In this document: positions 1,413-33,994 of the stretch, in pieces
Position numbering within the stretch: position 1 is the stretch's first letter
How the letters are laid out: the number at the start of each line of letters is the position of its first letter
DNA from: a virus
Taxonomy: Duplodnaviria > Heunggongvirae > Uroviricota > Caudoviricetes
Direction: 5' to 3' (one strand)
DNA length: 33,994 nucleotides
IMG/VR virus record: IMGVR_UViG_2585427621_000012
Made by a program: the position numbers and the translations under genes
Notes under the pieces: generated by a model
The model's database searches: none
Told to the model about the DNA's origin: nothing
What the model saw: only the letters and a program-made list of their open reading frames with translations

Positions 1413-1446
1413 TACAGCTGCATTTATTAAGGTTATCATCCGTTTC

Positions 1447-1533
1447 GCTGAAAAACATAACCCATAAAATGCTAGCTGTACCAGGAACCACCTCCTTAGC
1501 CTGTGTAATCTCCCTTACACGGGCTTATTTTTT
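1447..1533 (+). ncRNA. cyaR: CyaR (RyeE) Hfq-dependent small RNA
   Basis: Matches the remembered CyaR sequence GCTGAAAAACATAACCCATAAAATGCTAGCTGTACCAGGAACCACCTCCTTAGCCTGTGTAATCTCCCTTACACGGGCTTATTTTTT; terminator hairpin CCTGTGTAA/TTACACGGG followed by a U-run. Confidence 0.8.
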
Positions 1534-1534
1534 A
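1507..1534. repeat. att core, left copy (AATCTCCCTTACACGGGCTTATTTTTTA), overlapping the 3' end of cyaR
   Basis: Identical 28-bp copy at 33492-33519; reverse complement matches the remembered 27-bp P2 att core AAAAAATAAGCCCGTGTAAGGGAGATT. Confidence 0.8.
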
Positions 1535-1596
1535 CGCGTAATACAATGAAATAAAAGGATTTATTTCTGGTCACGTCCACATATTGACCACATCGA

Positions 1597-25853: not shown

Positions 25854-26252
25854 TCAATGAGCTAGCAAATTCCTTACCTTTTTCAGATAAAAATAATTTA
25901 ACACTCTCATTATTTTTTTCTCAGCTGAGAGCAATCCCCGCAATGACATAATTTTTATAAGATATTTCACTTTGGAATTGTCGAATAAGATATCTACATT
26001 TGTTGAAAAACTCTTTATTGTATAAGTTAACTGGGACTCGACACAAGCAGGCTTTTTCCCCGAAACTGTAAGAGCATAATCAATTTTTGATGGGTTTTTT
26101 ATCAGATACATAAAAATTTGTATTTTATTAATATCTAATGATAACACTCCTTTTTTGCTATGAGATAATATAGATATAGCAATGGCAAGCATAGCAAAAT
26201 TCAAGCTATACTCTTCATCAAGAGGAATATACGGCAAGTTATTTTTCTTCAT
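25854..26252 (-). CDS. Small middle-component protein of the three-gene module; as sequenced 132 aa, possibly about 170 aa if a frameshift at an A7 run is resolved
   Basis: ORF between the hydrolase and ATPase genes; a second open frame (25741-25912, ...SVKLFLSEKGKEFASSLTDGYFKEIKRLSEALLPLQ...) continues to a TGA overlapping the ATPase ATG. Confidence 0.55.
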   Translation of the reverse strand: MKKNNLPYIPLDEEYSLNFAMLAIAISILSHSKKGVLSLDINKIQIFMYLIKNPSKIDYALTVSGKKPACVESQLTYTIKSFSTNVDILFDNSKVKYLIKIMSLRGLLSAEKKIMRVLNYFYLKKVRNLLAH

Positions 26253-27462
26253 GATTACCTCGCCGTAATTGCTCCAAAGTTTCTACGCTGGTTTCAGATG
26301 ACCAGACAATATCCCTGTCATTTTTGTTAGCCAGTTGATGCAACATTCCTTTCTTATGTATCGTTTCTAAACTTTTTATAAGAGAATCTAACGACGACTT
26401 ATCCTCTTGGGCTATTCGTCTATGAACAGCAGCAATAAATTTATCTGGGGAAATTGAATTCGCGATATATTGCTCATACTCTTCCTGGTAAATCTCCCTT
26501 ATTTTAGAATACAAATGACCAAGTAGTTTCCTATCGTAATCACTCGTAAAAATATTTCTCGCAAGCTCAGCATTATAATAATATTCCTTTGCATGCATAG
26601 CGATATCCTGATGTATATCTGCGACAATCATTTTTAAGACGAAATACTCATTATCATATTGTTTCTCATCAGAAAAACGCTCAACACATATCTTCTTGGG
26701 TGCTTCTAAATTTATCTGCTGAATAAATTGCTTTACCGCAACAAACACTGTAGACGAGCTGTTTTCGGGCTTGCAAATTGAGCTATGCCCTTCATTAACT
26801 GCAATTGAGTTATTTCGTTCACTATCCATCGGTAATGCGCTTTTTTTATCAACTATAGTGTCATGAGAACCATAAACATATCTAGTGATAGGAAGTTTTT
26901 TGCTACAATTTATCCAGCGCCTATTCAACGTATCGGTCGCTTCACTTAACAATCCAAGATCTACTAACTGAGCATTTGAAGATACCATTGAAGTTATATT
27001 CGCCAATTTAGCACCAAAGTGAGGGACTGCTAACGAAATGAATCCAATTATATTAGATTGTTCCTCATGCTCAACTTTTTTTAGAATTAGATTTTTTGAT
27101 ATTACCCCCCCCATACTATGGGCGATTATTATAATTCGAGAGTAATCACTTAGCGTTACCCTAATCTCAGTATACAATAACTCAGCTATTTCATCAGTTG
27201 GTAAATTTCTCTCTAACTTATTTTTCTTAGAGAAAATACGAGCCCATAATCCTGACGTTTTAGCATACGTTTGTGTAAATTTGGTGAAATAATTGAAACA
27301 TGCAATATCAAATACATTGCCAATGTCTTCATCTTCTGCTAATAGTTTTGGAAATGAAGTTTCTTTATTAAAGTTCCATGTTTCCAAACCACCATTTAAT
27401 CCATGTACAAATAGTATCAGGCTATCTTTTTTCTCGTGGCTTATCCATTCAACCATGCTCAT
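26239..27462 (-). CDS. Lipase-like alpha/beta-hydrolase (serine hydrolase) with C-terminal helical domain (candidate effector, LmuA-like)
   Basis: 407 aa; oxyanion-hole motif LILFVHGLNG, nucleophile elbow AHSMGG (AxSxG), downstream GSHDT (Asp) and NEGHSS (His) consistent with a Ser-Asp-His triad; about 170-aa helical C-terminus; AT-rich. Confidence 0.7.
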   Translation of the reverse strand: MSMVEWISHEKKDSLILFVHGLNGGLETWNFNKETSFPKLLAEDEDIGNVFDIACFNYFTKFTQTYAKTSGLWARIFSKKNKLERNLPTDEIAELLYTEIRVTLSDYSRIIIIAHSMGGVISKNLILKKVEHEEQSNIIGFISLAVPHFGAKLANITSMVSSNAQLVDLGLLSEATDTLNRRWINCSKKLPITRYVYGSHDTIVDKKSALPMDSERNNSIAVNEGHSSICKPENSSSTVFVAVKQFIQQINLEAPKKICVERFSDEKQYDNEYFVLKMIVADIHQDIAMHAKEYYYNAELARNIFTSDYDRKLLGHLYSKIREIYQEEYEQYIANSISPDKFIAAVHRRIAQEDKSSLDSLIKSLETIHKKGMLHQLANKNDRDIVWSSETSVETLEQLRRGNHEEK

Positions 27463-30322: not shown

Positions 30323-30625
30323 TCAGCTCCTTTTATCGTTAAGTTTCCTGGATACATCAGCGCAATAACTGGCAAGTTCTGTCGTTAATTTTGTCAGTTC
30401 ATCCACTGAGGAAATTTGCTTGTGGAATACAGCGCGTTTAACAAGTAAATTGACCACATCAGACAGGAGGTTTAATTCATTCTGATAAATCGCGATAACA
30501 GATTCAGTTATGTCGCGTTTTTCTTTATCAAGGCAAAGTTGAATAAGAGACAAATCGCCATTTTTCATAACGGCGATTTTTAAGGCGTTATTCAGTAATA
30601 CAACTGAATGAGAACAGGACATCAA
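30323..30625 (-). CDS. Hypothetical early-operon protein
   Basis: 100-aa ORF in operon context between B and A. Confidence 0.5.
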
Positions 30626-32398: not shown

Positions 32399-33412
32399 AT
32401 GGCAATCAAAAAACTCGATGATGGTCGATATGAAGTGGACATCCGCCCTACTGGACGTAACGGAAAACGCATCCGTAGGAAGTTTGATAAGAAAAGCGAA
32501 GCTGTCGCTTTCGAAAAATACACGTTGTACAACCACCACAATAAAGAATGGCTATCAAAACCAACAGACAAACGACGTCTGTCGGAACTGACACAGATCT
32601 GGTGGGATTTAAAGGGTAAACACGAAGAGCATGGGAAATCTAATCTTGGAAAAATTGAAATCTTCACAAAAATAACGAATGACCCATGCGCATTTCAAAT
32701 CACGAAATCCCTTATCAGCCAGTACTGCGCCACCCGAAGAAGTCAGGGTATTAAACCTTCGAGTATCAATCGTGATTTAACATGTATTAGCGGCATGTTT
32801 ACAGCCCTGATTGAAGCGGAGTTATTCTTTGGTGAGCATCCTATCAGAGGGACAAAGAGGCTTAAGGAGGAAAAACCAGAAACAGGCTATCTCACACAGG
32901 AAGAAATAGCCTTACTGCTTGCAGCACTTGACGGCGACAATAAAAAGATTGCGATTCTTTGCCTAAGTACAGGAGCACGTTGGGGAGAAGCAGCTCGTTT
33001 GAAAGCAGAAAATATCATCCATAACCGCGTCACGTTTGTTAAAACGAAAACAAACAAACCACGCACCGTCCCGATCTCAGAGGCTGTTGCCAAAATGATC
33101 GCGGATAACAAACGAGGTTTTTTATTCCCTGATGCTGATTACCCTCGCTTCAGACGAACAATGAAAGCAATAAAACCGGATTTGCCAATGGGGCAAGCCA
33201 CACATGCACTAAGGCACAGCTTTGCCACTCATTTCATGATTAATGGAGGAAGTATTATCACGCTACAACGGATACTAGGTCACACGCGGATTGAGCAAAC
33301 TATGGTTTACGCTCATTTTGCGCCAGAGTACCTTCAGGACGCCATTTCTCTTAATCCGCTAAGAGGTGGTACTGAGGCCGAGAGTGTCCACACAGTGTCC
33401 ACAGTAGAGTAA
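32399..33412 (+). CDS. int: Integrase (tyrosine recombinase)
   Basis: 337-aa product from MAIKKLDDGRYEVDIRP...; catalytic-region motifs (...HALRHSFATHF..., ...LGHTRIEQTMVYAHF...); next to the right att copy. Confidence 0.9.
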   Translation: MAIKKLDDGRYEVDIRPTGRNGKRIRRKFDKKSEAVAFEKYTLYNHHNKEWLSKPTDKRRLSELTQIWWDLKGKHEEHGKSNLGKIEIFTKITNDPCAFQITKSLISQYCATRRSQGIKPSSINRDLTCISGMFTALIEAELFFGEHPIRGTKRLKEEKPETGYLTQEEIALLLAALDGDNKKIAILCLSTGARWGEAARLKAENIIHNRVTFVKTKTNKPRTVPISEAVAKMIADNKRGFLFPDADYPRFRRTMKAIKPDLPMGQATHALRHSFATHFMINGGSIITLQRILGHTRIEQTMVYAHFAPEYLQDAISLNPLRGGTEAESVHTVSTVE

Positions 33413-33491: not shown

Positions 33492-33519
33492 AATCTCCCT
33501 TACACGGGCTTATTTTTTA
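33492..33519. repeat. att core, right copy
   Basis: Identical to 1507-1534; lies 80 bp downstream of int. Confidence 0.8.
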
Positions 33520-33676
33520 TGCATAAGCCCTATCCCTGATAACCGTCTTCCATTGACCACATCGATAGAATCTCCCTTCATAGCACGATGCCTTTCACGT
33601 AACGGCATCGTGCTCGCACAGGTTCCGGCTAAGCACAACCAGAACGCGCATGTTTGACGCTTACCAAAAAATATTC

Positions 33677-33994
33677 TCACTCTCCACATTTGAATGTCAG
33701 ACGAGCGACGCCATGTAATCCTGCACCTTCTGTCTTCAGGTCAACTATCTGCATTTTTTTGCCCTGAGTAACACAGAAATGGGCTGCATCATTTTTTACT
33801 ATATTTTCTGCACCAGATATTCTGCCCCTGGCTAAAGAAGCTTCGGCTTCGGTGTAGTATTGGTTATCGAGTTTACGCTGAATATTACTTTTATATGCAA
33901 GACCAAATTTACCGATACTTGTCTCATCATTATGCACAGCACAACCAGACATAAGAAAAACACTAATTAATGATATAGCAGCTATCTTTTTCAT
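33677..33994 (-). CDS. yegR: Lipoprotein YegR
   Basis: 105-aa ORF MKKIAAISLISVFLMSGCAVHNDETSIGKF... with signal peptide and lipobox; recognised as E. coli YegR; host flank on the right. Confidence 0.8.
   Translation of the reverse strand: MKKIAAISLISVFLMSGCAVHNDETSIGKFGLAYKSNIQRKLDNQYYTEAEASLARGRISGAENIVKNDAAHFCVTQGKKMQIVDLKTEGAGLHGVARLTFKCGE

Follow-up and report, generated by a model that had tools for sequence, protein, structure and literature searches.

A probable remnant of an ancient P2-like prophage end beside the P2 attachment site of Escherichia coli

The DNA adjoining the int-side end of a P2-like prophage in the window analysed here (the whole stretch of 33,994 nucleotides in IMG/VR record IMGVR_UViG_2585427621_000012) probably derives from an ancient P2-like prophage, of which it is the decayed ogr-side arm, and has become fixed in E. 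coli. The segment extends from position 33520 to about 33570; two Int arm-type boxes and an IHF site would once have been part of it, and in this window box 2 with a few flanking bases alone is still phage-like. It now serves as the native flank of the P2 attachment site in E. coli, and the ancient junction appears to have been fixed before the species diversified. The fossil adds to the familiar relics of prophage ends that are found at integration hotspots.

The window opens with yegQ/trhP (1-1362) at its left end, followed by the cyaR small-RNA gene (1445-1530, plus strand), which matches the Rfam family RF00112 over its full length with 100.7 bits. The att core consists of the loop, the 3' stem and the T-run of the cyaR terminator. 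One copy of the core lies at the cyaR/ogr-side junction of the resident prophage (1507-1534, plus strand) and is identical to the attP core annotated in the P2 genome (AF063097), and its direct repeat forms the int-side junction (33492-33519, plus strand). Beyond this 28-bp repeat, eight further bases are similar (ACGCGTAA versus ATGCATAA). The open reading frame list places the late-gene activator gene ogr at 1636-1854 on the minus strand, in a position matching that of ogr in P2 and of ogrK in K-12, and the integrase gene int at 32399-33412 on the plus strand. Outside the prophage, a 157-bp spacer sits between the int-side core and yegR (33677-33994, minus strand), which codes for a predicted lipoprotein of 105 amino acids, and the fossil P2-type arm (33520-33570, plus strand) is located at the core end of this spacer.

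The initial annotation had noticed a 14-bp motif, ATTGACCACATCGA, just beyond the right att copy and inside the left prophage end, and had read it as part of an integrase arm-type site. The motif is indeed exact at 1583-1596 and at 33552-33565, both on the plus strand. With up to two mismatches allowed, there is only one extra match in the window, at 30449 within a coding sequence; shuffled controls under the same setting contain 0.27 matches on average, and none of 100 reaches three. At the left end of the prophage, GTCCACA (1575) and GACCACA (1586) are direct repeats 11 bp apart, located between the att core and ogr. They belong to the ogr-side arm of the resident prophage, an Int arm-binding site at 1568-1596 (plus strand; termed the 'P arm' in AF063097), in which box 1, GTCCACAT, occupies 1575-1582, box 2, GACCACAT, occupies 1586-1593, and the 14-mer spans the second box. 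This segment aligns to the protein_bind feature for the Int 'P arm' of P2 (24293-24320), which reads GGTCACGTCCACACATTGACCACATCGA and corresponds to both ogr-adjacent repeats. The second Int-binding site of P2, the 'P' arm' at the 3' end of int, spans two GTGTCCACA repeats; an identical sequence is found here at 33384-33403, with the int-side boxes GTCCACA at 33386-33392 and 33397-33403. The published consensus of P2-type arm repeats, tgTGGaCa (PMC3448106), agrees with these assignments. Because of the Int annotation in AF063097 and of this consensus, the reading of the GWCCACAT repeats as P2 Int arm-type sites proved correct.

The box in the spacer (33555-33562) reads GACCACAT, with the reverse complement ATGTGGTC, and has the same sequence as P2 box 2; it agrees with the consensus at each of the five upper-case positions within TGTGGTCA. 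The spacer departs from a working P2-type arm in several respects. It contains just one GWCCACA, so that the paired direct repeats about 11 bp apart are missing, and in place of the phage's CGTCCACA the partner position has CGTCTTCC. The distance from the start of the core to the box is 63 nt in the spacer versus 79 nt in the prophage arm, and the box lies in host flank, at a spacing other than that of attP and with the IHF-site region gone.

Local alignment of 1535-1640 with 33520-33676 recovers the 14-mer (or a match of 17 out of 19 positions), and its score is reached by 2 of 2000 dinucleotide shuffles. Read outward from the core, the fossil in this window comprises ATGCATAA (33520-33527), sharing six of eight positions with the phage ACGCGTAA, a deletion of the IHF-site region, which accounts for a 16-nt gap relative to the phage arm, a decayed box 1, CGTCTTCC (33544-33551), the intact box 2, GACCACAT, and a tail, CGATAGAA. 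The derived states of the fossil are CCGTCTTCC and CGATAGAA.

Other alleles of the flank preserve more of the phage sequence. We scanned IMG/VR for the att core followed by TTGACCACAT and obtained three classes of sequences, including 63 true P2-type arms, 54 flank copies of the common length (70-72 nt) and four flank copies that are longer by 12 nt, such as ATGCATAAGCTGTAAATACGGATTGATCCCTGGTCACCGTCTTCCATTGACCACATCGATAG. The common short allele reads CTGGTCACCGTC, and the O157-type allele of this window is mutated there to CTGATAACCGTC. All flank alleles are collinear with the P2 arm from the core edge to box 2. The long allele and the P2 arm agree in 48 of 65 aligned columns (74%); after exclusion of the core and the 14-mer the long allele scores 14, against a mean of 5.9 in shuffled sequences, and none of 5000 shuffles reaches this value. 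Under the same exclusion, 39 of 5000 shuffles attain the score of the common short allele, and 37 of 5000 that of the K-12 allele. In the allele of this window, the part left of the 14-mer shows no significant similarity to the P2 arm by shuffling with the 14-mer excluded. Judged from these sequence comparisons, the case for a P2 arm rests on the other E. coli alleles and on the outgroups, and in the allele of this window the 14-mer alone is significant.

When the long allele, stripped of the core, was compared by BLAST with 50,697 phage records, it matched P2 and 14 other P2-like records, in each case through the Int/IHF arm segment, with 82.9% identity over 40 nt. The remaining matches comprise records that include host flank and three matches of 19 nt to unrelated Microbacterium phages. 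It is through the long allele that significant collinear homology to phage sequence directly beside the att core is seen; no modern phage with an arm nearer to the fossil was found among the 50,697 records. The long allele occurs in unoccupied sites, with 100% identity across the whole junction in four genomes and at least 90% identity in about 105, and it is therefore a chromosomal allele rather than a by-product of lysogeny. As the 12 nt that set it apart can be aligned to phage sequence, the simplest view is that the long form is the older one and that the common form arose by a later deletion.

The surviving box is nearly invariant in E. coli. Among 108 flanks that were picked by a yegR anchor, blind to the 14-mer, and that represent 27 alleles with 38 variable sites, the 14-mer is unchanged in every one. 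The longest unvarying run among the alleles is a 20-nt block, TCTTCCATTGACCACATCGA; under random placement of the 38 variable sites a run of this length has P = 0.038, a post hoc and marginal value. Of 5426 complete genomes, 5223 carry the 30-mer surrounding the box in exact form (28 nt or more out of 30), although whole-spacer alleles differ by up to 10%. The box is altered in Shigella flexneri and decayed in L104, a divergent genome described below. Apart from the 14-mer, the fossil is 55-74% identical to the phage arm, and a perfect 14-mer is not what a neutral sequence of this kind would be expected to retain. This hints at constraint but may also be luck.

These observations bear on an alternative that shares the fossil origin and differs on present-day function, namely that the intact box is not inert. 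It could be bound by the N-terminal domain of P2 Int, so that attB and the int-side junction would act as a partial attP, or it could have been co-opted by the host. If so, an Int-bound box could affect integration, aid the strong preference of P2 for this site, locI, or contribute to the poor excision of P2 there, and the near-invariance of the box in E. coli would reflect selection. We consider this unlikely, despite the conservation described above and the match to the arm consensus at all conserved positions. The host has no obvious gain from a phage Int site; P2 arm sites act in pairs, and box 1 is gone; the distance from box to core departs from the attP value by 16 nt (common alleles) or 4 nt (long alleles). 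The changes in S. flexneri and L104, together with the marginal statistic, weigh in the same direction. Pattern scans also revealed no promoter or terminator at the box region, and a promoter scan on the TTGACC of the box gave no match. The interest of the fossil is modest unless this surviving Int box proves functional.

The direction of transfer was addressed through the gene order around cyaR, using a genome listing of cyaR-yegS loci that left out E. fergusonii and E. marmotae. Among the matches listed, cyaR directly adjoins yegS in Klebsiella, Enterobacter, Kosakonia, Citrobacter, Atlantibacter and others, and yegS follows the outgroup cyaR terminator within about 90 bp, without the spacer or yegR. 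Within the genus Escherichia, the same direct adjacency is found in E. whittamii and Escherichia sp. E1V33. The flank is thus absent from these two and from at least five other genera, which identifies the arrangement without it as the ancestral gene order. The yegR block between cyaR and yegS is present only in E. coli, Shigella and one related lineage among the matches listed. Complete two-box P2-type arms adjoin cyaR in prophages of Citrobacter and other genera.

Two further loci carry arm stubs of their own. In E. albertii (L060), a P2-arm stub with 77% identity breaks off within Int box 1 at an IS-like end, TGTAAGTATCCC. This stub lies approximately 55-200 bases from the cyaR pattern match and is followed by transposase-like fragments and AT-rich DNA, and no yegR was found within 3 kb. 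The divergent genome L104, labelled E. coli, has an arm stub with 68% identity, beyond which come the right-hand portion of the E. coli spacer and then yegR. At box 1, CTT replaces the phage CCACA in both L104 and E. coli, a shared change at few positions that hints that the two flanks may descend from one old event.

Phages integrating into RNA genes carry host-derived 3' gene ends, and homology alone shows no direction, so the flank might in principle be original host DNA taken up by a P2 ancestor via imprecise excision. This reverse scenario appears very unlikely. The outgroups and two Escherichia species have cyaR beside yegS and lack the flank among the matches listed, two-box P2-type arms occur in prophages of genera whose chromosomes are without the flank, and the same type of Int box recurs on the other arm of the phage, inside int. 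Moreover, it is the host copy that looks degraded, with box 1 decayed and the IHF-site region deleted. Because the host copies look degraded and the ancestral gene order is without them, we conclude that the transfer ran from phage to host.

The initial annotation had gone further and suggested that the right flank was left by an earlier P2-like prophage at the same site, mostly replaced or deleted. Descent of the flank from a P2-like end is upheld, but its attribution to an earlier prophage of this strain is not. The spacer (33521-33676) was found in 5376 of 5426 complete E. coli genomes (99%), nearly always in a single copy. In E. coli O157:H7 PV15-279, which has the order yegQ-cyaR-core-spacer-yegR with an empty site, it is 100% identical. 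We further queried the genomes with a 112-nt junction that runs from cyaR through the core into the initial 57 nt of the spacer, and required a one-piece match over at least 80% of its length; such a match marks an unoccupied site, since lysogens and remnant carriers give split matches. The cyaR-core-spacer junction is unbroken in at least 4207 E. coli genomes. The strain-variable presence expected of a recent relic is thus not observed. Recent remnants do arise at the cyaR site, as exemplified by attL, ogrK, yegZ and a half core in K-12, which is the point in favour of this scenario. However, the K-12 remnant ends in the half core, TACACGGGCTTATTTTTTT, and the same spacer continues beyond it to the right, i.e., outside the recent remnant. 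As the spacer is present in empty sites and lies outside the K-12 remnant, it is not a relic of a prior prophage of this strain or lineage, an explanation that we regard as extremely improbable. The annotation would have been contradicted by alignment to the native sequence of prophage-free strains coupled with a lack of similarity to P2 ends; the spacer does align to such native sequence, but similarity to P2 ends exists as well.

A 10-mer, AATCTCCCTT, located at 33569-33578 (plus strand) had been described as a degenerate second core. The word itself is exact and copies the left end of the att core, but its identity as a core is not borne out, because it has zero extension beyond the 10 bases, varies among alleles and in its K-12-type form is at chance level. 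In the window it occurs at 1507, 33492 and 33569, as well as at 26491 inside a coding sequence. For the allele of this window, a 10-nt word in common with the core turns up in 0.14% of shuffles, the alignment score is attained by 1.4%, and the K-12-type allele, AATCCTCCTT, is at the chance level against the core by the same kind of shuffling. The 108 independently sampled flanks contain three versions, including AATCTCCCTT in 58, AATCCTCCTT in 43 and AATCCCCCTT in seven. Known P2 secondary sites reportedly share well over half of the core positions, according to the work of Barreiro in 1992; the match here is limited to 10 contiguous bases. The phage-like alignment of the fossil enters the first bases of the 10-mer (CGATAGAA versus CGATACAA in a Citrobacter prophage arm), and the 10-mer, which is unproven as a core and sits at the fossil's right-hand edge, probably matches by coincidence. 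We also scanned the 880-bp interval between cyaR and yegS for more core copies and obtained a score of 10, which is reached by 40% of shuffles. A degenerate right-hand core near yegS, which would bracket the spacer-yegR insert as a single integrated element, was tried as a candidate by local alignment of the ancestral terminator with a 70-nt segment upstream of the resumption of homology; it was rejected, as its score of 6.5 is equalled by about 65% of shuffles. That the 14-mer and the 10-mer are both chance matches in unrelated sequence is scarcely credible: the 10-mer alone fits chance, as does the window allele to the left of the 14-mer, but the alignment score of the 14-mer, the collinearity of the other alleles and the BLAST retrieval of the P2 arm all speak against it.

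Descent of the flank from an ancient prophage end is best accounted for by the following history, in which integration was followed by deletion. An ancient P2-type phage would have inserted at the cyaR terminator in an ancestor of E. coli, and nearly all of this prophage would then have been deleted, a process that may be seen as ongoing in K-12. The leftover cyaR, core and arm stub would have been fixed in the E. coli lineage, where they now would serve as locI. The resident prophage of the window would later have recombined within the 28-bp core, and recombination within the core places the fossil just outside the int-side junction. Today the fossil is most likely inert. Accordingly, locI would be not untouched host DNA but the leftover junction of an older P2-type lysogeny, and being such a junction, it would mean that present-day P2 phages integrate into the footprint of their ancestor.

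The closest counterpart of this fossil is the cryptic P2 remnant of K-12 at locI, which was reportedly described by Barreiro and Haggard-Ljungquist in 1992 (PR-X: ogrK, yegZ). Both share the cyaR-terminator site, the phage family and the deletion process. The K-12 remnant leaves the ogr-side junction beside cyaR and is recent, strain-variable, about 630 bp long and clearly phage-like, still encoding Ogr, whereas the fossil is about 50 nt long, gene-free, present in about 99% of E. coli, located outside that remnant and older. Compared with the ogr-side arm of attP in P2 (AF063097), the fossil retains the same order and orientation relative to the core and 14 identical nucleotides comprising box 2 and its flanks, but it is chromosomal DNA that has lost box 1 and lacks the ogr terminator, and its IHF-site region has been deleted or has decayed.

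The cyaR locus resembles other integration hotspots at tRNA, tmRNA and small-RNA genes, in that the 3' end of the gene is reused, foreign DNA lies downstream and sister lineages carry differing relics. It is a clear small example of a small-RNA terminator reused as a phage landing site. Unlike the usual hotspot stubs, the fossil forms the immediate flank of an active attB and keeps one intact recombinase arm box. Another small-RNA hotspot that gathers decayed att sites and stubs is the sdsR locus (PMC3333887). A literature search found no paper linking cyaR or yegQ with a fossil in this flank; the primary P2 att papers were outside the reach of that search. For annotation, the locus illustrates that DNA just outside a prophage can be phage-derived and yet "native".

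There is no phage coding sequence in 33520-33676, and no phage gene survives in the whole cyaR-yegS insert. We considered yegR as a possible phage cargo gene and rejected it: tblastn against the 50,697 phage records returned two records, both with host flank. A Pfam search with YegR gave nothing above the threshold, and PHROG family 21109 matches the protein over its full length, which would fit a family assembled from prophage calls overrunning into the flank. Although ON470606.1 and AY639599.1 are deposited as phage records, they include parts of the host chromosome (yegR, yegS or the K-12 remnant region). Phage records bearing host flank in this manner can make host genes such as yegR look phage-borne in phage-derived families, possibly including PHROG 21109.

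An inverted repeat with a perfect 11-bp stem and an 11-nt loop (AGCACGATGCC / GGCATCGTGCT) is located at 33582-33614, downstream of yegR and outside the fossil arm, and the minus-strand RNA fold of 33540-33680 has z = -3.4. This hairpin was tried as an intrinsic terminator and rejected, as it has no T-run, the pattern scan was negative and the stem mismatches in other alleles are uncompensated. A mechanical ORF of 59 amino acids spans the spacer (33510-33689, minus strand), and ON470606 annotates hypothetical proteins over the same flank; the ORF is probably not a gene, as its reading frame would be disrupted by single-base indels that distinguish the alleles. Some E. coli loci (L130, L276, L295 and others) and L104 carry an AT-rich insert of about 170-220 bp, which separates the spacer (after TTACCAAAAAAT) from the yegR stop and in L104 occupies 225-445 counted from the cyaR pattern match; it represents an insertion/deletion polymorphism.

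Some int-side junctions (L141 and two other IMG/VR loci) read core, ACGCGTAA and GCCCTATCC, so that the eight phage-type bases past the core run directly into host flank, and represent either an older host allele or an exchange past the core. In short flank alleles only, an 8-bp inverted repeat (GGGCTTAT/ATAAGCCC, 33506-33513 and 33523-33530) straddles the border between core and flank and is probably coincidental. Inside the resident prophage, an ORF of 407 amino acids at 26239-27462 (minus strand) contains the chance occurrence of AATCTCCCTT at 26491; its N-terminal part looks by eye like an alpha/beta hydrolase, and the gene may be variable cargo of the P2-like phage.
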